Shown here: piece after piece, positions 1 through 13,797 of the stretch
Position numbering within the stretch: position 1 is the stretch's first letter
Layout: every line of letters begins with the position of its first letter
The notes under the pieces: model-generated
What the model saw: the letters and a program-made list of their open reading frames with translations, nothing else
Databases searched by the model: none
Told to the model about the DNA's origin: nothing
Made by a program: the position numbers and the translations under genes
From: a virus
Lineage: Duplodnaviria; Heunggongvirae; Uroviricota; Caudoviricetes
Virus record (IMG/VR): IMGVR_UViG_2667527789_000018
Location: 1-31,427 of that record
Reading direction: 5' to 3' (one strand)
DNA length: 31,427 nt

Positions 1-1011
1 TTATAACGTCACTCCGCCTTTTAGTGGATTCAGAGCGACGGCATTTTGCAGATAGTCAGGCGCAAGGTGCGCATAGGCCATCGTCTGCTGAATGCTCGCA
101 TGTCCCAGAATCTGTTGCAGTGCGATTATATTGCCCCCATTCATCATGAAATGGCTTGCGAATGTATGCCGCAGGATGTGGGTTGCCTGATTGGGTGGTA
201 TATCAGGTTTCACTCTGCGTAAAATCCCGCAAAATTTCTCATAATCAACTTTGAATAATTTGGCGCTGGCCTCCTCTTTAACTTTTTTCTCCAGTTCCTC
301 AGAAATCGGCACGGTTCGCTTTTTACCGTTTTTGGTTTTCAGGAAGGTAACCCTGCAATTTGTAATCTGTGCTGGTTTTAGCGTGGCAACTTCCGTCCAT
401 CTTCCTCCAGTGCTCAGACATAAAAGCGCGACAAGTAAGTCATCACCAGCCAAAACATTTAACAGTTTTTCGATTTCTGCTTTTTCCAGGAACGTCATTT
501 CAGGGTTGGCCTCCGCCAGTGGCGGCAGTCCGTGAATTGGGTGTTGCCCGGAAAATTCATCCAATTGAATTAATTTTGTGAACATGCCGGATAATCTGTA
601 CATGTCACGGTTTATCGTTGAGGCACTGATACCATCACGTAGTCGCATGGAACGATAATCCATCAAAGCCCTTTTGCTCATCCTGCTCACTGGTATATCA
701 CCTATGCCGCTGATGGTTTTGAGTAGATGATTAAACTCTTTTGTTCCATGCTCGTGGTTTTGCCCGTGATATTTCCACCAGATGTCCAGCAACTCACTCA
801 AAGTCCGGCGGTCTGCTCGCTGGCCTCCCCATTCTTTCTGACTGGCATTGGCGATTGTGTATCGCTCAAATGCTAGTGCTTCAGCTTTTCTTTCGAATTT
901 CCTGCGGATGCGTTTTCCGTCGCGACCGCGAGGTCTAATGTCCACTTCATAGCGACCATCATCGAGCTTCTTAATTGCCATAAGAAAGCCCTCCGGCGCT
1001 GTATTCACCAT
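1..1011 (-). CDS. int: tyrosine integrase (P2 Int family)
   Basis: 336-aa ORF ending at a TAA whose complement is bases 1-3; C-terminal tyrosine-recombinase-like region (HILRHTFASH...GHASIQQTMAYAHL); located at prophage end beside repressor. An alternative ATG at 981 (MAIKKLDDGRYEV) has a better SD (GGAGGG), so the true start may be 981. Confidence 0.9.
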   Translation of the reverse strand: MVNTAPEGFLMAIKKLDDGRYEVDIRPRGRDGKRIRRKFERKAEALAFERYTIANASQKEWGGQRADRRTLSELLDIWWKYHGQNHEHGTKEFNHLLKTISGIGDIPVSRMSKRALMDYRSMRLRDGISASTINRDMYRLSGMFTKLIQLDEFSGQHPIHGLPPLAEANPEMTFLEKAEIEKLLNVLAGDDLLVALLCLSTGGRWTEVATLKPAQITNCRVTFLKTKNGKKRTVPISEELEKKVKEEASAKLFKVDYEKFCGILRRVKPDIPPNQATHILRHTFASHFMMNGGNIIALQQILGHASIQQTMAYAHLAPDYLQNAVALNPLKGGVTL

Positions 1012-1050
1012 CTTGGTAGCAAATGGTGAAAATGTAATCTTTATATAGAG

Positions 1051-1344
1051 TTAGCCAATCCTTTTCGCGGAGTGGTTGGACTCTGTTGACTCTGGCCCAA
1101 TGTGCGCGAGAGCCGGTGCGATTTGTCCTGCGTCCGGCGCGGTTTTATCTGTCATAAGCCATAGAGCATATTTTTGGAATGTGGGATGCATAGTGATTTT
1201 TAGCAAAGCTGTGCCACCGGGTTCAAAGTTTCCTCCTTCATATTTTTTAAGTGTGCTTAGCGGTAACTCTATGATTTCACAGAATTTTGATTGGCTTAGC
1301 CCTTCAGCCTCACGCAAGGCCTTAATCTTTTCGCTTAATTTCAT
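1051..1344 (-). CDS. C: immunity repressor, P2 C-like HTH protein
   Basis: 97-aa ORF with N-terminal HTH-like segment (LSQSKFCEIIELPLSTLKKY); divergent from the early operon, directly upstream of int as in P2. Confidence 0.85.
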   Translation of the reverse strand: MKLSEKIKALREAEGLSQSKFCEIIELPLSTLKKYEGGNFEPGGTALLKITMHPTFQKYALWLMTDKTAPDAGQIAPALAHIGPESTESNHSAKRIG

Positions 1345-1465
1345 TTGACATGGTGCCTATATAGGGACTAAATTCCCTCAAAACTGGAACCTATATAGGT
1401 TCCATTGATTTGAGAATAAACCAGCGTCTAAACGGTTTTGAGTGGTTTAGAAAGGGCTGGATCCT
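1345..1465. promoter_or_regulatory. immunity switch region: divergent early/repressor promoters with two palindromic operator-like sites
   Basis: TTGACA at 1345-1350; palindrome CCTATATAGG at 1356-1365 and again at 1390-1399, the second embedded in a perfect 18-bp palindrome GGAACCTATATAGGTTCC (1386-1403); sits between divergent C and cox. Confidence 0.6.
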
Positions 1466-1753
1466 ATGAGGGTACCATATATGGACGCTGAAAATTATGT
1501 GATTCAGTATCCGCTTGATGCGGTTCATGTGGATAAATTTGCTGATTTATTAGGGAAGCCAAAGACAGCCGTCAGTGAAATGGTGAAGGCAAATAAATTA
1601 CCAATTATTGAATTGCGTGATCCTTGCAAACCGAAGGCTCGTGCCGGTGAAAAATGGGTTTTCATTCCTGAGTTTAATCGCGCTGTACGTGAGGCGTTTT
1701 ATAACCGACCGGTTGAACAGCGTGATGCATGGCTTTTGTGGATGGGGTTGTGA
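1466..1753 (+). CDS. cox: Cox-like excisionase / early transcriptional regulator
   Basis: 95-aa first gene of rightward early operon; C-terminus RDAWLLWMGL resembles what I recall of P2 Cox; position identical to P2 cox. Confidence 0.7.
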   Translation: MRVPYMDAENYVIQYPLDAVHVDKFADLLGKPKTAVSEMVKANKLPIIELRDPCKPKARAGEKWVFIPEFNRAVREAFYNRPVEQRDAWLLWMGL

Positions 1754-1755
1754 TT

Positions 1756-1926
1756 ATGAATGAGCCGCGTTGTATTGCTCAGTTATTGCGTAACGAAAGC
1801 CCCAGGGCGATTGACTTCACCATCACCCACGGGAAGGGGCGCAAGGGAATCATTATCCGCACCAAAAAACAGAGTCCGTTAAAAAAGGCTCTGACCTTTC
1901 TGAAAAGCCGGAGGGCCTGGAAATGA
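1756..1926 (+). CDS. small early-operon protein (P2 orf78 position)
   Basis: ATG at 1756 three nt after cox stop; 56 aa; ends with ATGA overlap into next gene. The longer tracked ORF 1729-1926 overlaps cox. Confidence 0.5.
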   Translation: MNEPRCIAQLLRNESPRAIDFTITHGKGRKGIIIRTKKQSPLKKALTFLKSRRAWK

Positions 1927-2423
1927 CAGTGATGACGCTCAATCTCGTTGAAAAACAGCCAGCAGCTATGCGCCGGATAATTGGTAAGCATCTTGCCGTT
2001 CCTCGCTGGCAGGATACATGTGATTATTATAATCAGATGATGGAGCGCGAACGGCTAACAGTTTGCTTTCATGCGCAGTTAAAACAACGTCACGCAACGA
2101 TGCGTTTTGAAGAAATGAACGACGTCGAACGTGAACGGCTGGTTTGTGCAATTGATGAATTGCGTGGGGCATTCTCAAAACGCCGTCAGGTTGGCGCAAG
2201 TGAGTATGCATATATTAGTTTTTTAACAGTCAGTCAGCGTCGTACTTTATTTATGCATGCCGGATTGACTGAAAAAGAATTCAACCAGCCATACTGGCGA
2301 ATTAATGAAGAGTCATGTTACTGGCGTGATGCTTTATTTCGTGCATTACGTGAATTATTCAGCCTGTTTGAGTATGCACCGACAATTCTGACGTCGGTAA
2401 AACCAGAGCAATATCTGCATTAA
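1923..2423 (+). CDS. B: P2 gpB-like replication accessory protein (putative)
   Basis: 166 aa, the length I recall for P2 B; position cox-orf78-B; start codon overlaps previous stop (ATGA). Confidence 0.55.
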   Translation: MTVMTLNLVEKQPAAMRRIIGKHLAVPRWQDTCDYYNQMMERERLTVCFHAQLKQRHATMRFEEMNDVERERLVCAIDELRGAFSKRRQVGASEYAYISFLTVSQRRTLFMHAGLTEKEFNQPYWRINEESCYWRDALFRALRELFSLFEYAPTILTSVKPEQYLH

Positions 2424-2444
2424 GTAATTAACCAGAGTTTTTAA

Positions 2445-2472
2445 CGCACTTAATCGTGCGGGGCTTCTTTTT
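2445..2472 (+). terminator. weak hairpin plus T-tract after B (possible partial terminator)
   Basis: CGCAC-TTAATC-GTGCG stem-loop (2445-2460) followed by GGGCTTCTTTTT; short stem, so low confidence. Confidence 0.25.
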
Positions 2473-2486
2473 GCCTGGAGAAAGTT

Positions 2487-2711
2487 ATGCATACAGTTTC
2501 TGAAAATCAGTGCGGTATATACGCATTACTGCTGCAACAGGCCAGAACCGAAGCACAGGCCGACGCTGCGACGCGCTTTTCTTCTCATCTTGATGCCATG
2601 ATTCGCCACATCACAAAGGCGGAGTTATCCCGCGTGGAGATAGTCGAGCTGCTCAGTCAGGAGTCGGAAAAATTTCACAATATCGGATTGTCTCGCGGGG
2701 AGGTGCTTTGA
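2487..2711 (+). CDS. hypothetical early protein (P2 orf80 position)
   Basis: 74-aa ORF with strong SD (GGAGAAAG) 5 nt upstream of ATG 2487; stop overlaps next start (TGATG). Confidence 0.65.
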
Positions 2712-3013
2712 TGTCCTGTTCTCGTTCAGTTGTATTATTGAATAACGCCTTAAAAATCGCCGTTATGAAAAATGGCGATTTGTCTCTTATTCAACTTGGT
2801 CTTGATAAAGAAAAACGCGAAATAACTGAGTCTGTTATCGCGATTTATCAGAACGAATTAAACCTCCTGTCTGATGTGGTCAATTTACTTGTTAAACGCG
2901 CTGTGTTTCACAAGCAAATCTCCTCCGTGGATGAACTGACGAAATTAACGGCAGAAATCGCCAGCTATTGCGCTGATGAATTTAAAAACCTTAACGACAA
3001 AAGGAACTGGTAA
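2711..3013 (+). CDS. hypothetical early protein (P2 orf81 position)
   Basis: ATG at 2711 overlapping upstream stop; about 100 aa; stop overlaps next start (TAATG). Tracked ORF starts at TTG 2708. Confidence 0.65.
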   Translation: MSCSRSVVLLNNALKIAVMKNGDLSLIQLGLDKEKREITESVIAIYQNELNLLSDVVNLLVKRAVFHKQISSVDELTKLTAEIASYCADEFKNLNDKRNW

Positions 3014-3237
3014 TGCCGGACAACGTAGATTTTATTCAGGAACAACAGGCTGAATTACTGGAGCGCCAGATTAACGCGGCAAGGGTAAAACATTGCGGTG
3101 CTTCTGCGCTGGTTTGCGAAGAGTGTGACGCGCCAATACCTGCTGCCCGTCGTGCGGCTTATCCGTCAGCCACGCGTTGTGTTTCCTGTCAGTCAGTCTT
3201 TGAAGCAAAAAACAAACATTACCGGAGAACGGCATGA
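3013..3237 (+). CDS. TraR/DksA-family C4 zinc-finger protein (P2 orf82 position)
   Basis: 74 aa with CEEC-x17-CVSC four-cysteine motif typical of phage TraR/DksA-like zinc fingers. Confidence 0.75.
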   Translation: MPDNVDFIQEQQAELLERQINAARVKHCGASALVCEECDAPIPAARRAAYPSATRCVSCQSVFEAKNKHYRRTA

Positions 3238-3509
3238 GTATTCGTATTGAAATTGGCGAACGTTATGTCGTTACCAGTGACAGCTTTCAGTTTATTCTCC
3301 ACGAGAAAAAGAGAGCGGAAAGCGGTAAAAACGCCGGTCAGGAATGGCTGGCGGTGGTTGGTTATTACCCGAAATTAAGCCAGCTCGTTTCCGGCCTGAT
3401 GCATCACGATATTCTGACCGGAAGCGCAAAATCTTTTGCCGATTTAAACGCGCAGGTTGAGCAACTCAGCAAGCGTTGTTCAAAGGCTTTTGGCTCACAT
3501 GGCCGTTAA
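3234..3509 (+). CDS. hypothetical early protein (P2 orf83 position)
   Basis: 91-aa ORF; its stop overlaps the start of the replication gene (ATGGCCGTTAA). Confidence 0.6.
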   Translation: MSIRIEIGERYVVTSDSFQFILHEKKRAESGKNAGQEWLAVVGYYPKLSQLVSGLMHHDILTGSAKSFADLNAQVEQLSKRCSKAFGSHGR

Positions 3510-5784
3510 AGCCTCCGGGCGTTTTGTCCCTCCGTCAGCATTTGCCGCAGGCACCGGTAAGGCGTTTACTGGTGCTTATGCATGGAACGCGCCACGCGAG
3601 GCTGTCGGGCGCGAAAGACCCCTTACACGTGACGAGATGCGTCAGGTGCAAGGTGTTTTATTCACGATTAACCGCCTGCCTTACTTTTTGCGCTCGCTGT
3701 TTACTTCACGCTATGACTACATCCGGCGCAATAAAAGCCCGGTGCACGGGTTTTATTTCCTCACATCCACTTTTCAGCGTCGTTTATGGCCGCGCATTGA
3801 GCGCGTGAATCAGCGCCATGAAATGAACACCGACGCGTCGTTGCTGTTTCTGGCAGAGCGTGACCATTATGCGCGTCTGCCGGGGATGAATGACAAGGAA
3901 CTGAAAAAGTTTGCCGCCCGTATCTCATCGCAGCTTTTCATGATGTATGAGGAACTCTGCGATGCATGGGTTGATGCACATGGCGAGAAAGAATCGCTGT
4001 TTACGGATGAGGCTCAGGCGCATCTGTATGGTCATGTTGCTGGCGCTGCACGAGCTTTCAATATTTCCCCTCTCTACTGGAAAAAATACCGTAAAGGACA
4101 GATGACCACGAGGCAGGCATATTCTGCCATTGCCCGTCTGTTTAACGATGAGTGGTGGACTCATCAGCTTAAAGGTCAGCGTATGCGCTGGCATGAGGCG
4201 TTACTGATTGCTGTCGGGGAGGTGAATAAAGACCGTTCTCCTTATGCCAGTAAACATGCCATTCGTGATGTGCGTGCGCGCCGCCAGGCAAATCTGGAAT
4301 TTCTTAAATCGTGTGACCTTGAAAACAGGGAAACCGGCGAGCGCATCGACCTTATCAGTAAGGTGATGGGAAGTATTTCTAATCCTGAAATTCGCCGGAT
4401 GGAGCTGATGAACACCATTGCCGGTATTGAGCGTTACGCCGCCGCAGAGGGTGATGTGGGGATGTTTATCACGCTGACCGCGCCGTCAAAGTATCACCCG
4501 ACACGTCAGGTCGGAAAAGGCGAAAGTAAAACCGTCCAGCTAAATCACGGCTGGAACGATGAGGCATTTAATCCAAAGGATGCGCAGCGTTATCTCTGCC
4601 GCATCTGGAGCCTGATGCGCACGGCATTCAAGGATAATGATTTACAGGTCTACGGTTTGCGTGTCGTCGAGCCACACCACGACGGAACGCCGCACTGGCA
4701 TATGATGCTTTTTTGTAATCCACGTCAGCGTAACCAGATTATCGAAACCATGCGTCGCTACGCGCTCAAAGAGGATGGCGACGAAAGAGGAGCCGAGCGA
4801 AACCGTTTTCAGGCGAAACACCTTAACCGGGGCGGTGCTGCGGGGTATATCGCGAAATACATTTCAAAAAATATCGACGGCTATGCACTGGATGGTCAGC
4901 TCGATAACGATACCGGCAGACCTCTGAAAGATACTGCCGCGGCTGTTACTGCATGGGCGTCAACGTGGCGCATCCCGCAATTTAAAACGGTTGGTCTGCC
5001 GACAATGGGGGCTTACCGTGAACTACGCAAATTGCCTCGCGGCGTCAGCATTGCTGATGAGTTTGACGAACGCGTCGAGGCTGCACGCGCTGCCGCAGAC
5101 AGTGGCGATTTTGCGTTGTATATCAGTGCGCAGGGTGGGGCAAATGTCCCGCGCGATTGTCAGACTGTCAGGGTCGCCCGTAGTCCGTCGGATGAAGTTA
5201 ACGAGTACGAGGAAGAAGTCGAGAGAGTGGTCGGCATTTACGCGCCGCATCTCGGCGCGCGTCATATTCATATCACCAGAACGACGGACTGGCGCATTGT
5301 TCCGAAAGTGCCGGTCGTTGAGCCTTTGACTTTAAAAAGCGGCATCGCCGCGCCTCGGAGTCCTGTCAATAACTGTGGAATGCTCACCGGTGGTGATACT
5401 TCGTTACCGGCTCCCACACCTTCTGAGCACGCCGCAGCAGTGCTTAATCTGGTTGATGACGGAGTTATCGAATGGAATGAGCCGGAGGTCGTGAGGGCGC
5501 TCAGGGGCGCATTAAAACACGGCCTGAGAACACCTAATCGTCAGCAAAGAAACGGAAGCCCGTTAAAACAGCATGAAATAGCGCCATCGGCCAGACTGAC
5601 CCGGTCGGAACGAATGCAAATCACCCGTATCCGTGTTGACCTTGCTCAGAACGGTATCAGGCCGCAGCGATGGGAGCTTGAGGCGCTGGCGCGTGGCGCG
5701 ACCGTAAATTATGACGGGAAAAAATTCACGTATCCGGTCGCTGATGAGTGGCCGGGATTCTCAACGGTAATGGAGTGGATATAA
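3499..5784 (+). CDS. A: rolling-circle replication initiator endonuclease gpA
   Basis: First ATG at 3499 (MAVKASGRF) gives 761 aa, the P2 A length I recall; HUH-type motif HWHMMLF and tandem-tyrosine motif YIAKYISK seen in the translation. The tracked ORF begins at an upstream TTG (3457). Confidence 0.9.
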   Translation: MAVKASGRFVPPSAFAAGTGKAFTGAYAWNAPREAVGRERPLTRDEMRQVQGVLFTINRLPYFLRSLFTSRYDYIRRNKSPVHGFYFLTSTFQRRLWPRIERVNQRHEMNTDASLLFLAERDHYARLPGMNDKELKKFAARISSQLFMMYEELCDAWVDAHGEKESLFTDEAQAHLYGHVAGAARAFNISPLYWKKYRKGQMTTRQAYSAIARLFNDEWWTHQLKGQRMRWHEALLIAVGEVNKDRSPYASKHAIRDVRARRQANLEFLKSCDLENRETGERIDLISKVMGSISNPEIRRMELMNTIAGIERYAAAEGDVGMFITLTAPSKYHPTRQVGKGESKTVQLNHGWNDEAFNPKDAQRYLCRIWSLMRTAFKDNDLQVYGLRVVEPHHDGTPHWHMMLFCNPRQRNQIIETMRRYALKEDGDERGAERNRFQAKHLNRGGAAGYIAKYISKNIDGYALDGQLDNDTGRPLKDTAAAVTAWASTWRIPQFKTVGLPTMGAYRELRKLPRGVSIADEFDERVEAARAAADSGDFALYISAQGGANVPRDCQTVRVARSPSDEVNEYEEEVERVVGIYAPHLGARHIHITRTTDWRIVPKVPVVEPLTLKSGIAAPRSPVNNCGMLTGGDTSLPAPTPSEHAAAVLNLVDDGVIEWNEPEVVRALRGALKHGLRTPNRQQRNGSPLKQHEIAPSARLTRSERMQITRIRVDLAQNGIRPQRWELEALARGATVNYDGKKFTYPVADEWPGFSTVMEWI

Positions 5785-5895: not shown

Positions 5896-7734
5896 ATGAG
5901 CGAGTTCGATGTTTTTTCTATTTCAGTTGATGATTTTAAAAAAAGTGAGTACGCCAGTATATTGTTACCACCAAGAAGCCATTCTTATTTTGAAATGGAA
6001 TCTTATTTTTTTCAGTTGTTGTCATTTTATAAGCAAAAAAAAGATGTGAGTTCTTGGAGGGTTTGCTATTTATTACGTTCGTTATTTAGTTTAAAATTTT
6101 CTAAGTCTGGTGATATTATCGACTTTGAGTCTAAAATCATTCTCTATCCTAAGCGAGGTTATAGACCTTCAGATTACAAGGATAATTATTTAACCATATT
6201 AACTTGTATTAAAGAAAATACTGACAACCCTTATATTATATCTAGGGTGTGTGATGTTTTATGGATAAATAACCGTAAGGATATAGATTCTGCTAATAAA
6301 GCAATAGAGTCATATGCTCTAATGATTAATGATGCTTGTGATACTTTGTTAGAAAAAAAGGAATCAGGTGACATCCATGTTTTTGATGTCGTTGACTGCT
6401 TGGATAGAGGTATTACAATATCGCGCATGCTTATTGGCAGGAAAAAACAACTGCAAGGAGGGATAGTTGACTCGACGTTAAGGCTATATCATATATTAAT
6501 AGATTCTAGTATATTTATCGGTGTTTTAAGAATTTCTGAAATTCTTTATAAGAATAATTTATTGTGCCCCTTACAATTGGCTAAGAATGCAGAAAAGATA
6601 GCTGATGAGCATTGTGGAGCTTCTTATTTTGATGCTGTGAAAAAATTGTTTTATTTTGCGTCTGAATTATATGTTAAAAATGATATGGAAGAGCAAGGAA
6701 GAAGGTGCAAAATGAAAGCGACAGAAATAACATTGGCTCAATTTGAACAGTCTTCATCTCCAACATTGAAGGCTCATTGGCTAAGAGTTGCTCTTGGGGA
6801 ATTTAGAGCGATTGGTGGAATGAGTGAAAGGATTAAAGAGATTAAAGAGGAATTAAATTCTATTCGAGATCAAATCAATGATGAAATGTATTCCTTTGCA
6901 ATACCAATGGATCTTAGTGATGTTATCGCTCAGAAAGAGCATATTTATAATCAATTAAATTTCTCAGAAATAATTAAAAAATTAATCTCTAGATTTAAGG
7001 TTGTAAGTGCCAGTGAGATTATGGAAAGAGCTCGCTCTGATGCTAAGAGATATTTTTTTGTTAATGTGAGTGATACGGTTTTTTATGATGACAGAGGACG
7101 CGTTGTGGCAAGGCAACCACCTTTAGATTCTGCTGGGGATATAAGTCTAGATGATGCCTGTGTAAATTATTTAAGAACTAGTAATATTGAGCATCAGTTT
7201 TATGTTTATGGTGAGTTTGAAGTTGTTAGGCAAAGAGTGTTGTCTAGGTATTCATTAAATGAGAATACATTTGACCCAATCTCACAACAAAGTCTATTTG
7301 TTCCTCCTGGGTATGCGGAAATATTTTCTTTAGGATTTCTTAAGCTTTGGCAGGGGGATTATGTGTCTGCCTGTTATTTGTTGTTGCCGCAGTTGGAGAA
7401 TTCAATTAGATGGATTTTAGAATTAAGAAGAAAAGAAACAACGAAAATAGATGTGTCACTTTTTGAGGAGGCTACTAGTCTATCTCAAATGCTTGCAAAT
7501 TATAAGAGTGAAATGGAAGGTATTTTTGGGAGTGATCATGTATTGACTATGGATTTATTGTTCAATATGAAAGGTGGTGCTGCAATTAGACACACGATGG
7601 CTCATGGCAGGTATACTGTAAATCATTGTTATCAACCAACTTCAGTTTTTGCCTGTGTCTTTATCTTTTATTTAACTTGTTTGCCTTTATTTAGTGTATG
7701 GGAAGATAAAGTTGAACCTTATCTGACTGATTAA
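5896..7734 (+). CDS. AT-rich accessory (cargo) protein of unknown function, 612 aa; candidate anti-phage defence protein
   Basis: ATG 5896 preceded by AGGTGAGGA; about 32% G+C in a 60-nt sample versus about 57% in phage genes; occupies the tin/old position of P2; no P-loop; C-terminal R-x4-H motif (AIRHTMAHGRY). Confidence 0.8.
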   Translation: MSEFDVFSISVDDFKKSEYASILLPPRSHSYFEMESYFFQLLSFYKQKKDVSSWRVCYLLRSLFSLKFSKSGDIIDFESKIILYPKRGYRPSDYKDNYLTILTCIKENTDNPYIISRVCDVLWINNRKDIDSANKAIESYALMINDACDTLLEKKESGDIHVFDVVDCLDRGITISRMLIGRKKQLQGGIVDSTLRLYHILIDSSIFIGVLRISEILYKNNLLCPLQLAKNAEKIADEHCGASYFDAVKKLFYFASELYVKNDMEEQGRRCKMKATEITLAQFEQSSSPTLKAHWLRVALGEFRAIGGMSERIKEIKEELNSIRDQINDEMYSFAIPMDLSDVIAQKEHIYNQLNFSEIIKKLISRFKVVSASEIMERARSDAKRYFFVNVSDTVFYDDRGRVVARQPPLDSAGDISLDDACVNYLRTSNIEHQFYVYGEFEVVRQRVLSRYSLNENTFDPISQQSLFVPPGYAEIFSLGFLKLWQGDYVSACYLLLPQLENSIRWILELRRKETTKIDVSLFEEATSLSQMLANYKSEMEGIFGSDHVLTMDLLFNMKGGAAIRHTMAHGRYTVNHCYQPTSVFACVFIFYLTCLPLFSVWEDKVEPYLTD

Positions 7735-7895
7735 TGGAAGTTGATTTAGGTATTTTGGCATTTATCTTTCTGCGTGCAATATGTGCATGGTTTTGCATGT
7801 GCCGGAGTTGCATGTTCCGGCCGTGCGTCCGCCAGAACGGGCGTGGCTCAAAAGCGGTATTGCACCTGCATTAAAAACACCCCATGAAGCGGGCG

Positions 7896-7914
7896 GGCGA
7901 GGCGGGGAAAGCAC
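7896..7914. other. cos: cos cohesive-end sequence (P2-type 19-nt overhang)
   Basis: GGCGAGGCGGGGAAAGCAC at 7896-7914 matches the P2 cohesive-end sequence as I remember it; lies 170 bp from the portal gene stop, where P2 cos is expected. Confidence 0.6.
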
Positions 7915-8083
7915 TGCGCGCTGGCGGTGGTGCTGATTTTATTTTTTCAGCGTCTGAGCGCGTCGTGACGGCGTTTAGATTGTTCGCCGGGGCGTTGGAG
8001 TGTCTGCGGGGTGTTTTGTGCGGTGGTGAGCGTGTGAGGGCGTGATGACGGGGTGTAAAAAAGCCGCCCGCAGGCGGCGATGT

Positions 8084-9118
8084 TCAGCCGTTGTCAGTGT
8101 CCAGTGAGTAGTTTTTAAAGCGGATGACCTCCTGACCGAGCCAGCCGTTTATTTCCCGAATTCTGTCCTGTAACGGGATAAGCTCATTGCGGACAAAGAC
8201 CTTTGCCACTTTCTCAATATCTCCCAGTGACCCGACGTTCTCCGGCTTGCCGCCCATCAACTGAAAGGGGATACGGTGCGAGTCCAGCAGGTCAGCGGTG
8301 CTGGCTTTTTTGATATTAAAAAAATCGTCCTTCGTTGCCACTTCACTGAGCGGGATAATTTTAATGCCGTCGGCTTTTCCCTGCGGGGCATAGAGAAACA
8401 GATTTTTAAAGTTGTTGCGGCCTTTCGACTTGACCATGTTTTCGCGAAGCATTTCGATATCGTTGCGATCCTGCACGGCATCAGTGACGTACATGATGTA
8501 TCCGGCATGTGCGCCGTTTTCGTAATACTTGCGGCGGAACAGCGTGGCTGACTCATTCAGCCAGGCAGAGTTAAGGGCGCTGAGATATTCCGGCATGCCG
8601 TACAGCTCCTGATTAATATCCGGCTCCAGCAGATGAAACACGGAGCCGGGCGCGAAGGCTGTCGGCTCGTTGAAGGACGACACCCACCAGTAAACATCCT
8701 CCTCCACGCCACGGCGGGTATATTTTGCCGGTGAGGTTTCCAGTCTGATGACCTTACCGGTGGTGCTGTAACGCTTTTCCAGAAACGCATTACCGAACAC
8801 CAGAAAATCCAGCACAAAGCGGCTGAAATCCTGCTGAGAAAGCCACGGATGCGGAATAAACGTTGAAGCCAGAATATTGCGTTTAACGTAAATCGGCGAG
8901 CTGTGATGCACGGCAGCACGCAGGCTTTTTGCCAGACCGGTAAAGCTGACCGGTGGCTCATACCATCTGCCGTTACTGATGCACTCGACGTAATCCAGAA
9001 TGTCACGGCGGTCGAGAACCGGCACCGGCTCGCCAAAGGTGAATGCCTCCATTTTCGGTGCACTGGCGGTCATTGTTTTTGCCGCAGGTTGCGGTGTTTT
9101 CCCTTTTTTCTTGCTCAT
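8084..9118 (-). CDS. Q: portal protein gpQ
   Basis: 344 aa (P2 Q length as recalled); leftward operon Q-P next to cos; start ATG overlaps P stop (ATGA on minus strand). Confidence 0.9.
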   Translation of the reverse strand: MSKKKGKTPQPAAKTMTASAPKMEAFTFGEPVPVLDRRDILDYVECISNGRWYEPPVSFTGLAKSLRAAVHHSSPIYVKRNILASTFIPHPWLSQQDFSRFVLDFLVFGNAFLEKRYSTTGKVIRLETSPAKYTRRGVEEDVYWWVSSFNEPTAFAPGSVFHLLEPDINQELYGMPEYLSALNSAWLNESATLFRRKYYENGAHAGYIMYVTDAVQDRNDIEMLRENMVKSKGRNNFKNLFLYAPQGKADGIKIIPLSEVATKDDFFNIKKASTADLLDSHRIPFQLMGGKPENVGSLGDIEKVAKVFVRNELIPLQDRIREINGWLGQEVIRFKNYSLDTDNG

Positions 9119-10890
9119 CAGTAAAACTCCAGAATGGTGGATGTCAGCGGGGTGCTGATACTGGCGGTGAGTGGCTCATTTAACAGGGCGTGCATGGTCG
9201 CCCAGGCGAGGTCGGCGTGGCTGGCTTCCTCGCTGCGGCTGGCCTCATAGGTGGCACTGCGTCCGCTGCTGGTCATGGTCTTGCGGATAGCCATAAACGA
9301 GCTGGTGATGTCGGTGGCGCTGACGTCATATTCCAGACAGCCACGGCGGATGACGTCTTTTGCCTTGAGCACCATTGCGGTTTTCATTTCCGGCGTGTAG
9401 CGGATGTCGCGCGCGGCGGGATAGAACGAGCGCACGAGCTGGAACACGCCGACACCGAGGCCGGTAGCATCAATACCGATGTATTCGACGTTGTATTTTT
9501 CGGTGAGTTCGCGGATGGATTCAGCCTGGGTGGCAAAGTCCATGCCTTTCCACTGGTGACGCTCAAGTATTCTGAATTTGCCACCGGCCACCACCGGCGG
9601 TGCCAGTACCACGCATCCGGCACTGTCGCCACGGTGTGACGGGTCGTAACCAATCCATACCGGGCGGGAGCCGAACGGATTGGCGGCAAAGGGTGCATAG
9701 TCTTCCCATTCTTCCAGCGTGTCGACCATGCAGCGTTGCAGCTCCTCGAACGGGAACACCGACGCCTTGTCGTCAACAAATTCACACATGAACAGGTTTT
9801 TAAAATCGTCGGCGCTGTTTTCACGTTTGAGCTGCTCAATGTCGAACAACGTGCAGCCGCCTTTCAGCGCGTCCTCAATGGTGACAATCTGCCGCCACTG
9901 GCCGTCCGCACAGAGAAGACCTCCGGCAAGTGCGTTATGACTGACGTCGATTTCCACGCGTTCGGCGGCGCTGGCGCGTCCCCGGTTAAACAGTTCACCG
10001 GACCAGAACGGATAGGCGTCGTGCGCCAGCGTGGACGGGGTGGAGAAATAGGTCGAGCGCAGGTGACTCTGTGAGGCCATACCTGATGCCACCTTTCGCA
10101 GTACCTGAAAATTCGGGATCCAGAAAATCTCGTCGACGTACAGGTCGCCGTTATGGCTCTGTGCGGTGTTGGAGTTGGTGCCGAGAAAAATCAGTTTTGC
10201 GCCGTTATTGCCCAGGACAATCGGGTCACCGGTCAGGTCAACGTCAACCAGACGGGCAAAGGCGATGATGTATTCGCGGAACACATACGCCTGCGTTTTA
10301 CTGGCCGACAGAAAAATCTGGTTATGACCGGTTTTCAGGGCGCGCAGCAGCGCCTCGCGGGAAAAATAAAACGTTGCGCCAATCTGGCGGGATTTCAGGA
10401 TATCGCGAATGCGGTGCTCAAGCCCGGCGCGATACCAGTGCAACTGATATTCGAAAGACTGCTCAAAGAAAATCTGCTCCAGCTTTTCGATGGCCTCGTC
10501 ACTGAAAAAATTCTTTTTCGGTTTGCGACGCCCGCCTTTGTTGCGGTTAGCGACGTTCGGATTAAGGTCTGCCTCGTTGCCGGTCTGGCTGTAGCGGTTG
10601 ACCCGTGCCAGTCGTTCAATCTGGCGTCCGAGCAGGTCAATTTCCTTGAAGTCACCGCCGGTTTTCTGCGGTTTGATGATGAGCTGGGTCAGCCGCGCTT
10701 CCAGACTCATTTCGACACGGCTGATGGGGGCAACGCTGTCCCAGCCGTCGCGCTGTTTCCAGCTCTGCACCGTCGGGCGTTTCATCTGCAACATGGCGGC
10801 AATCTGCGGCACGGAAAACCCCTGCCAGTACAGCAGCGCCGCCTGACGACGCGGGTCGTGTAAAAGAGTGGTGTCTGTGGTGATGGTCAT
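9118..10890 (-). CDS. P: terminase large (ATPase) subunit gpP
   Basis: ATG at 10890 with GAGG SD gives 590 aa (P2 P length as recalled); the tracked ORF extends 10 codons further to 10920 from a non-ATG start. Confidence 0.9.
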   Translation of the reverse strand: MTITTDTTLLHDPRRQAALLYWQGFSVPQIAAMLQMKRPTVQSWKQRDGWDSVAPISRVEMSLEARLTQLIIKPQKTGGDFKEIDLLGRQIERLARVNRYSQTGNEADLNPNVANRNKGGRRKPKKNFFSDEAIEKLEQIFFEQSFEYQLHWYRAGLEHRIRDILKSRQIGATFYFSREALLRALKTGHNQIFLSASKTQAYVFREYIIAFARLVDVDLTGDPIVLGNNGAKLIFLGTNSNTAQSHNGDLYVDEIFWIPNFQVLRKVASGMASQSHLRSTYFSTPSTLAHDAYPFWSGELFNRGRASAAERVEIDVSHNALAGGLLCADGQWRQIVTIEDALKGGCTLFDIEQLKRENSADDFKNLFMCEFVDDKASVFPFEELQRCMVDTLEEWEDYAPFAANPFGSRPVWIGYDPSHRGDSAGCVVLAPPVVAGGKFRILERHQWKGMDFATQAESIRELTEKYNVEYIGIDATGLGVGVFQLVRSFYPAARDIRYTPEMKTAMVLKAKDVIRRGCLEYDVSATDITSSFMAIRKTMTSSGRSATYEASRSEEASHADLAWATMHALLNEPLTASISTPLTSTILEFY

Positions 10891-11063
10891 GAATACCTCG
10901 CCGTGATGAATACACGGCAAGGCTACTGAGTCGTGCCCCGCGATTCGCTAAGGTGCTGTTGTGTCAGTGATAAGCCATCCGGGACTGATGGCGGAGGATG
11001 CGTATCGTCGGGAAACTGATGCCGACATGTGACTCCTCTAATCACTATTCAGGACTCCTGACA

Positions 11064-13053: not shown

Positions 13054-13797
13054 ATGACGAGTCCCGCACAGCGCCACATGATGCGGGTCTCGGCAGCGAT
13101 GACCGCGCAGCGGGAAGCCGCCCCGCTGCGACATGCAACTGTCTATGAGCAGATGCTGGTTAAGCTCGCCGCAGACCAGCGCACACTGAAAGCGATTTAT
13201 TCAAAAGAGCTGAAGGCCGCGAAAAAACGCGAACTGCTGCCGTTCTGGTTGCCGTGGGTGAACGGCGTGCTGGAGCAGGGCAAAGGTGCACAGGATGACA
13301 TTCTGATGACGGTCATGCTGTGGCGTCTGGATACCGGCGATATTGCCGGTGCGCTGGAGATTGCCCGTTATGCCCTGAAGTACGGTCTGACCATGCCGGG
13401 TAAACACCGCCGTACCCCGCCGTACATGTTCACCGAGGAGGTGGCGCTTGCGGCCATGCGCGCTCACGCTGCCGGTGAGTCTGTGGATACCCGCCTGCTG
13501 ACGGACACCCTTGAACTGACTGCCGCTGCTGACATGCCTGATGAAGTGCGCGCAAAGCTGCACAAAATCACCGGTCTGTTTCTGCGTGACGCTGGTGATG
13601 CCGCAGGGGCGCTGGCACACCTGCAACGTGCGACACAGCTCGACTGTCAGGCAGGCGTCAAAAAAGAGATTGAACGACTGGAGCGGGAGCTGAAACCGAA
13701 GCCGGAGCCGCAGCCCAAAGCGGTCACCCGCGCCCCCCGTAAGACACGGAGCGTGACACCGGCAAAACGTGGACGCCCGAAAAAGAAAGCCAGTTAA
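13054..13797 (+). CDS. M: terminase small (endonuclease) subunit gpM
   Basis: 247 aa; basic lysine-rich C-terminus; position N-M-L. Confidence 0.9.
   Translation: MTSPAQRHMMRVSAAMTAQREAAPLRHATVYEQMLVKLAADQRTLKAIYSKELKAAKKRELLPFWLPWVNGVLEQGKGAQDDILMTVMLWRLDTGDIAGALEIARYALKYGLTMPGKHRRTPPYMFTEEVALAAMRAHAAGESVDTRLLTDTLELTAAADMPDEVRAKLHKITGLFLRDAGDAAGALAHLQRATQLDCQAGVKKEIERLERELKPKPEPQPKAVTRAPRKTRSVTPAKRGRPKKKAS

Follow-up and report, generated by a model that had tools for sequence, protein, structure and literature searches.

What is the role of the short repeats that stand just upstream of the cohesive-end site (cos) in a P2-like prophage, between its cargo gene and the cut? The DNA analysed here, which we call the window, is the whole 31,427-nucleotide stretch of IMG/VR record IMGVR_UViG_2667527789_000018. 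It is a P2-like prophage, and six complete genomes, that of E. coli E308 among them, match it at 100% identity over this locus. The gene for gpA (3457-5784, Pfam Phage_GPA) is separated from cos by a cargo gene on the + strand (5896-7734), which encodes 612 amino acids and has a GC content of about 0.30, compared with 0.55 in the backbone. The cargo product has a match to Pfam DUF7380 at its N-terminus and one over its full length to PDC-S39, a candidate defence system of PADLOC (E = 1e-73). E. coli 16F5M1D1 (L135) carries this gene at the corresponding position. In P2-like phages the interval between gpA and cos is a hotspot for defence genes that abuts cos (PMC9122126).

The cohesive end of the window is a 19-nt sequence of P2 type (GGCGAGGCGGGGAAAGCAC, 7896-7914) and matches cosL/cosR of P2 (NC_001895) exactly. 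The first gene to its right codes for the portal protein, a gpQ homologue (8084-9118, - strand, Pfam Phage_portal), and is followed by the large terminase subunit, a gpP homologue (9118-10920, - strand, Pfam Terminase_6N, Terminase_6C, Terminase_5 and HTH_23), which carries a helix-turn-helix in its N-terminal part (aa 22-79; Pfam Terminase_5, HTH_23, HTH_28). The small terminase subunit, a gpM homologue, is encoded at 13054-13797 on the + strand (Pfam Phage_term_smal, E = 5e-48). This layout of portal and terminase genes is that of P2 and 186. The placement of cos is likewise that of the P2/186/P4 type, with the replication and cargo side on one hand, the divergent Q and P genes on the other and gpM farther downstream. 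The cos of this prophage is ordinary, with nothing exceptional about it, and is probably normal and functional.

Several other elements surround this cos. A terminator-like hairpin with a T-run (GCGCTGGCGGTGGTGC TGATTTTATTTTTT) lies straight after the cohesive end on the + strand (7918-7947), and P2 has one too. On the - strand, 8063-8078 holds a tQ-like terminator for the portal operon. Two 29-nt direct repeats (7949-7977, AGCGTCTGAGCGCGTCGTGACGGCGTTTA, and 8029-8057, AGCGTGTGAGGGCGTGATGACGGGGTGTA), 79% identical and 80 bp apart, occupy part of the interval from cos to the end of the portal gene. No sigma-70 promoter was found between 7500 and 8200.

The repeats under study comprise three + strand copies of TGCATG (7784-7789, 7794-7799 and 7809-7814). 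The hexamer is not palindromic, so that the copies are direct repeats. Counted over the whole window, it occurs 16 times on the + strand and 5 times on the - strand. The cargo ORF stops 50 bp 5' of the first copy. In the local sequence (CTGCGTGCAATATGTGCATGGTTTTGCATGTGCCGGAGTTGCATGTTCCGGCCGTGCG), the copies at 7794 and 7809 stand in the context TTGCATGT and form part of a 13-nt direct repeat (TTGCATGTGCCGG at 7793 and TTGCATGTTCCGG at 7808). The third copy is surrounded by an inverted repeat, CCGGA-N9-TCCGG, that can be extended to 6 bp (GCCGGA at 7801-7806, TCCGGC at 7816-7821). The triple TGCATG, the inverted repeat and their position between cargo stop and cos had already been reported in an earlier, sequence-only reading of this DNA, and all of them are confirmed in the sequence.

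Taken within the window, these features attract little attention. Three TGCATG within 31 bp were obtained in 1 of 600 simulations under a first-order Markov model of the window, and some hexamer or other was tripled within 31 bp in 21% of Markov simulations, so that the cluster by itself is just mildly unusual. The inverted repeat is one of 135 such 6-bp repeats (loop 3-12) in the window. A scan for hexamer clusters also returned two other triples spanning at most 31 bp, namely CCACCG/CACCGC (24287, 24293 and 24305) and TGGCCG (27669, 27679 and 27688). The real significance of the repeats comes from the comparison of cos sites, not from the window alone.

For this comparison, IMG/VR was scanned with an 18-mer of cos alone, which gave 104-107 distinct upstream arms; as cos sites were gathered by the 18-mer only, the sampling is blind to TGCAT. 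When P2, 186, P4 and four phage isolates are aligned on the first cohesive-end base, TGCAT occupies the same columns in all of them (33452, 33464, 33474 and 33546 in P2; 30501, 30514, 30524 and 30596 in 186). TGCAT is present at fixed offsets from cos, -29 (c0), about -101 (c3), about -111 (c2) and about -124 (c1), in P2, 186, P4 and more than 130 distinct arms, which come from many enterobacterial genera. Alignment with the cos regions of P2 and 186 had been named in the sequence-only reading as a check on its repeats, and the copies c1-c3 are indeed found in both phages at the same offsets. The distal array of YGCAT at about -124/-111/-101 is a criterion derived in this analysis, not a published one.

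Exact TGCAT was counted in 107 arms, at c0 in 103, at c3 in 93, at c2 in 86 and at c1 in 74, and with at most one mismatch in 107, 104, 106 and 96 of them, respectively; the arms share phylogeny and these counts are not independent events. The commonest variants are CGCAT, TGAAT and TGCGT. Columns of the motif are conserved at 85-100%, those flanking c1-c3 at 35-85%. The spacing is equally regular: c2 and c3 are 10 bp apart in 75 of 75 arms, c3 and c0 are separated by 72 bp in 73 arms, by 71 in 11 and by 73 in 6, and c1 precedes c2 by 13 bp in 41 arms and by 10 bp in 13. Motif, orientation and spacing are all conserved.

A MAFFT profile resolves the region into two conserved islands, 7781-7800 and 7858-7921. 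The spacer that connects the distal array to the cos core (7800-7859) varies in sequence, with columns conserved at 30-70% compared with 90-99% in TGCAT, and its length is nearly constant. The second island is the conserved cos core, including the cohesive end at 7896-7914; its columns are conserved at 90% or more across 104 arms and it matches the published "55-bp core". The core of the window is 0.83-0.86 identical to those of P2, 186 and P4. It contains c0 (TGCAT, 7867-7871, offset -29) as the second half of a cos-proximal pair, TTGCA-CC-TGCAT (7860-7871), for which the family consensus is ATGCA-AC-TGCAT; ATGCA at -36 is present in 65 of 104 arms.

A second sample, with one genome per species and the same 18-mer, contained 34 cos sites that were accepted as true since they carry c0; about a dozen enterobacterial genera are represented. 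It includes Yokenella, Kosakonia, Phytobacter, Citrobacter, Erwinia, Pantoea, Mangrovibacter, Raoultella and E. albertii. Exact c3, c2 and c1 were found in 30, 30 and 27 of the 34 sites, within highly diverse flanks. As a negative control, 83 chance matches to the 18-mer in unrelated, mostly G+C-rich genomes were inspected, and c3, c2 and c1 occurred in 0, 1 and 0 of them. The array is kept beside unrelated cargo: DUF7380, retron reverse transcriptase, GNAT, old/tin and tum/orf97. Small ORFs that run across the repeats (7734-7874, 7781-7936, 7762-7914 and others) were considered and rejected, because conservation is confined to 5-bp islands with diverged flanks, which is a non-coding pattern.

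The window can now be read against the family. The first two copies of TGCATG, 7784-7789 (offset -112) and 7794-7799 (offset -102), are c2 and c3 on the + strand. On the same strand c1 is present in the degenerate form TGCGT (7771-7775, offset -125); it lies 37 bp beyond the end of the cargo gene, and the junction between cargo and backbone is at or just 5' of it. Sister arms with a retron cargo (L131/L132) have TGCAT at this position. The spacing of 13 and 10 bp is that of the family, with the array displaced by 1 bp away from cos. The sequence-only reading had suggested that the repeats beside cos are packaging signals for the terminase. This suggestion gains support for the copies at 7784 and 7794, which correspond to the invariant c2 and c3, 10 bp apart in P2, 186, P4 and most cos arms, and loses it for the copy at 7809, which is lineage-specific together with the inverted repeat around it.

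This supernumerary TGCATG (7809-7814, + strand) follows c3 by 15 bp, and an exact TGCAT at that distance was found in 2 of 93 other arms. At its position sister arms have TTACATGTTCTGG (TTACATG) and 186-like arms TTGCCCG. The inverted repeat (GCCGGA-N9-TCCGGC, 7801-7821) is not conserved, its right arm being TTCTGG instead of TTCCGG in sister arms. Two point differences from sister arms thus account for the supernumerary TGCATG and for the perfection of the inverted repeat, and outside the window both recur only in the lineage with the same cargo (L135). Judged from these comparisons, both are probably neutral, or at most provide an extra site. One of the two other arms with an exact copy, L042 from IMG/VR, has a degenerate c2 (TGCGT) at about -112 and its extra copy at about -87. 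This combination of a degenerate and an extra copy mirrors the window and may be coincidence or compensation.

Homology between the window and prophages with other cargo starts at 7761, 7771, 7779 or 7783. As it starts at c1 or c2, no conserved piece of the cos backbone lies farther out than the array. In E. coli O157:H16 98-3133 (L133) c1 was lost by a clean 13-bp deletion (TGCATGCAATATG) between the c1 and c2 repeats at about -125, and this prophage keeps c2 and c3 only. Record OU784746 (P2SIDE7), which comes with no isolation details, is also without c1.

We propose that the array is the distal, cosB-like part of the P2-family cos and that it is recognised by the terminase, through gpM or the N-terminal helix-turn-helix of gpP; on balance we hold this to be probable. 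The cos of the P2/186/P4 type would then have two parts. The distal part would consist of the direct YGCAT repeats c1-c3, spaced by about one helical turn, and a spacer of variable sequence and a length of 72 +/-1 bp (about 7 helical turns) would join it to c0 (-29) in the core. Binding of terminase to the phased repeats would position its nuclease on the 19-nt cos, a function analogous to that of the R sites of lambda cosB. Candidate readers are the small subunit gpM and/or gpP, whose N-terminal helix-turn-helix makes the large subunit a candidate for sequence reading beside gpM.

Invariant letters, one-turn phasing and a fixed-length spacer of free sequence leading to c0 are typical of a multi-site protein recognition element. 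Since the letters of the motif are invariant and not merely complementary, sequence-specific recognition by a protein is favoured over a nucleic-acid structure. In favour of terminase, an intact gpP with its helix-turn-helix and gpM are both encoded in the window. Against it, c1 is often degenerate or deleted, and, unlike lambda cosB, the array is separated from the terminase genes by cos. Cosmids with longer flanks of cos have been reported as better transducers (PMC9594776), which fits a role of the array loosely. The binding protein and the role in packaging are what we infer from this pattern. A stronger proposal, that the array is the obligatory second half of the P2/186/P4 packaging signal and the equivalent of cosB for gpM or the gpP helix-turn-helix, is possible, and we put it forward with considerable doubt.

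Satellite P4 has only the cos region in common with P2 and is packaged by the P2 terminase (PMC9122126). Identity between P2 and P4 is 0.83 in the core, 0.53 in the array block, 0.42 beyond +27 and 0.25, which is background, in the spacer; in the array block hardly more than the TGCAT letters are common to both. At P4-like loci, which have psu upstream, the four copies are present in 18 of 18 arms, and c1-c3 are exact in 28 of 28 when arms are pooled. P4-like satellites have their hotspot on the opposite side of cos (PMC9122126), and the array is perfectly retained on the psu side. As the variable hotspot of P4 is across cos, the array is not tied to cargo. As far as sequences can tell, the comparison with P4 argues for a packaging role of the array.

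The 28 P4-like arms, pooled from IMG/VR and GTDB loci, have just 5 distinct array sequences. Among P2-like arms, all three copies are exact in 34 of 83, and 78 sequences are distinct. Satellites might accordingly carry a stronger packaging signal than P2-like phages, in a contrast where relatedness is uncontrolled. In P2 (NC_001895), the annotated starts of old-tin mRNA at 33424/33426 imply an old promoter TTGAAT-17 nt-TAAAAA (33431-33459), whose inferred -35 hexamer TTGAAT (33459-33454) overlaps c1 (33452-33456). This overlap fits c1 as the least constrained copy.

Proteins other than terminase have to be weighed as well. A host architectural or other non-terminase protein might bend or wrap cos (compare IHF at lambda I1) and leave only the 55-bp core for terminase to read. 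Such a protein would produce the same conservation, phasing and constant spacer, none of which names the protein that binds, and all hosts are Enterobacterales, so that a shared host factor is possible. We nevertheless consider it unlikely. A consensus scan of 7760-7930 on both strands revealed no IHF consensus, WATCAANNNNTTR or WATCARNNNNTTR, and YGCAT is not known as the target of any enterobacterial nucleoid protein. The same motif, moreover, recurs in the cos core at -29/-36, beside the cut site where terminase must act.

The repeats could also work as structure. The array, mainly c1/c2, would in this case form a hairpin or a weak intrinsic terminator and so protect cos against read-through transcription, or the inverted repeat at 7801-7821 would terminate the cargo transcript; we rate this as quite improbable. 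The palindromic TGCA allows two copies to pair, c2 is followed by a T-run, and a terminator scan flags 7773-7789 + GTTTTG. This call is weak: its stem is built from the TGCA cores and has 3 G-C pairs, and the region does not fold more stably than its shuffled versions (z = -0.16 and -0.53). The segment c1-c2(-c3) also folds no better than shuffled sequence in the window (z = -0.5), 186 (z = -1.05) and P2 (z = -1.0). P4 differs, as in its c1/c2 region an A-run and a T-run enclose a 13-bp stem, with a folding energy of -21.5 kcal/mol and z = -4.2, and the flanks of c1/c2 pair above shuffled partners at two positions (P ~0.005, relatedness not controlled). Because of the P4 hairpin we retain the c1/c2 terminator as a minor rival, and given the strength of the hairpin in P4-like arms, a structural or terminator role may coexist with recognition by terminase. 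The best-conserved copies, c3 and c0, however, are left unexplained by a hairpin, and it is the letters that are conserved, not pairing alone. In 186 the mapped terminator t95b is already located 38 bp 5' of c1, and in P2 the cargo is transcribed away from cos.

The hairpin of P4 (L009/L010, about -130 to -95) resembles a bidirectional terminator after psu. Strong c1/c2 hairpins flanked by an A-run and a T-run are also present in the P4-like L025, L034 and L048; among these variants the loop and upper stem differ and pairing is seemingly kept.

The inverted repeat of the window has its own local fold (RNA, 7796-7826, -14.3 kcal/mol, z = -3.0), and the wider region 7730-7860 shows no excess stability (z = -0.16). 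As a rho-independent terminator the inverted repeat was rejected: it is followed by CGTGCGTCC with no T-run, the terminator scan made no call there, and it is missing from sister arms. The sequence-only reading had offered a terminator or regulatory element of the cargo gene as an alternative to packaging. The lack of a T-run speaks against the terminator, and regulation of the cargo is hard to reconcile with repeats that persist beside unrelated cargo in either orientation, and in P4 with no cargo there. A known RNA family was also sought, and no Rfam match with E <= 1 was obtained for 7500-8200 on either strand.

Recombination that swaps cargo in the gpA-cos hotspot might use the repeats as its substrate or be marked by them. 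The junctions with other cargo at 7761-7783, that is at c1 and c2, the 13-bp deletion between repeats that removed c1 from one prophage, and the hotspot known to abut cos (PMC9122126) are all in line with it. Junctions are, however, expected beside any essential element, as selection removes cuts into such an element, and P4-like satellites have their hotspot across cos and yet a perfect array on the psu side (PMC9122126). We therefore find a recombinational role very unlikely. That the three TGCATG are a functionless chance cluster or a neutral relic of ancestry is the least credible of all, for while some hexamer is easily tripled in simulated windows and the third copy and inverted repeat resemble neutral lineage-specific changes, c2 and c3 are near-invariant at fixed offsets in very divergent arms whose neighbouring columns and spacer are at background, and the chance 18-mer matches of the negative control are without the repeats.

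P2 and P4 cosmids and helper-free P4 particles are engineered for gene delivery, with cos fragments chosen largely by habit; a functional cos fragment of P2 type may be about 125 bp long. Recognising a phased TGCAT array some 100-125 bp from the cut site as part of the conserved signal would help to define a minimal efficient cos and to design cos knock-outs. If the array were obligatory, the usual description of a "55-bp cos" would be incomplete. The perfect array of P4-like satellites, set in a strong hairpin, could out-signal the weakened copies of their helpers, and the extra copy of the window could compensate for its degenerate c1, as L042 pairs the two likewise. The array also marks the inner boundary of the defence-gene hotspot of P2-like prophages, so that cargo junctions pile up at that point.

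In the literature, the P2-family cos is described by its shared 55-bp core (PMC5694545, PMC9594776, PMC2231350). P2-type terminase uses monomeric circles (PMC2231350). With such a substrate, initiation and termination take place at one cos. A full-text literature search, with the primary cos paper outside its reach, found no mention of TGCAT repeats at P2-family cos, and we cannot claim that the array is previously undescribed. The cos sites of P2, 186 and satellite P4 were reportedly treated by Ziermann and Calendar in 1990 (Gene 96:9), a paper to which PMC9122126 and PMC5694545 refer.

The cosB of lambda consists of the gpNu1 binding sites R3, R2 and R1 and the IHF site I1. In both systems a single short motif is repeated several times no more than about 120 bp from the nicking site; the window has three to four copies of YGCAT in the 125 bp next to cos. 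Both also have length-sensitive DNA between repeats and nicking site, and by analogy with lambda the repeats may anchor terminase for cos cleavage. The array of the window differs from cosB in having no sequence similarity to it and no IHF consensus, in being built of direct repeats throughout and in lying across cos from the terminase and portal genes. The use of monomeric circles by P2-type terminase (PMC2231350) is a further difference.

Phage 186 gives another parallel. Dodd and Egan, as cited in PMC5694545, are said to have described in 1996 (Virology 219:115) its t95b terminator and the replacement of the interval from cos to this terminator by retrons. The window has its cargo in the same interval 5' of cos. 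In the sister arms with retron cargo (L131/L132) a t95b-like GCCGGTTTTTTT is retained about 40 bp 5' of c1; compared with 186, the replacement in the window reaches c1 and the t95b-like terminator is gone. The inverted repeat at 7801-7821 is not its equivalent, given its other position and missing T-run.

Close relatives are also the cos sites of P2, 186 and P4 themselves, which share with the window an identical 19-nt cohesive end, a core that is 83-86% identical, the same TGCAT offsets and the same layout of Q and P. Peculiar to the window are the single mismatch in c1, the position of the array 1 bp farther out (-125/-112/-102), the additional exact copy 15 bp after c3 and the perfect 6-bp inverted repeat, and its cargo is PDC-S39/DUF7380 instead of old/tin or tum/orf97. 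Read at the level of sequence, the window carries the P2-family cos flank in an ordinary form.
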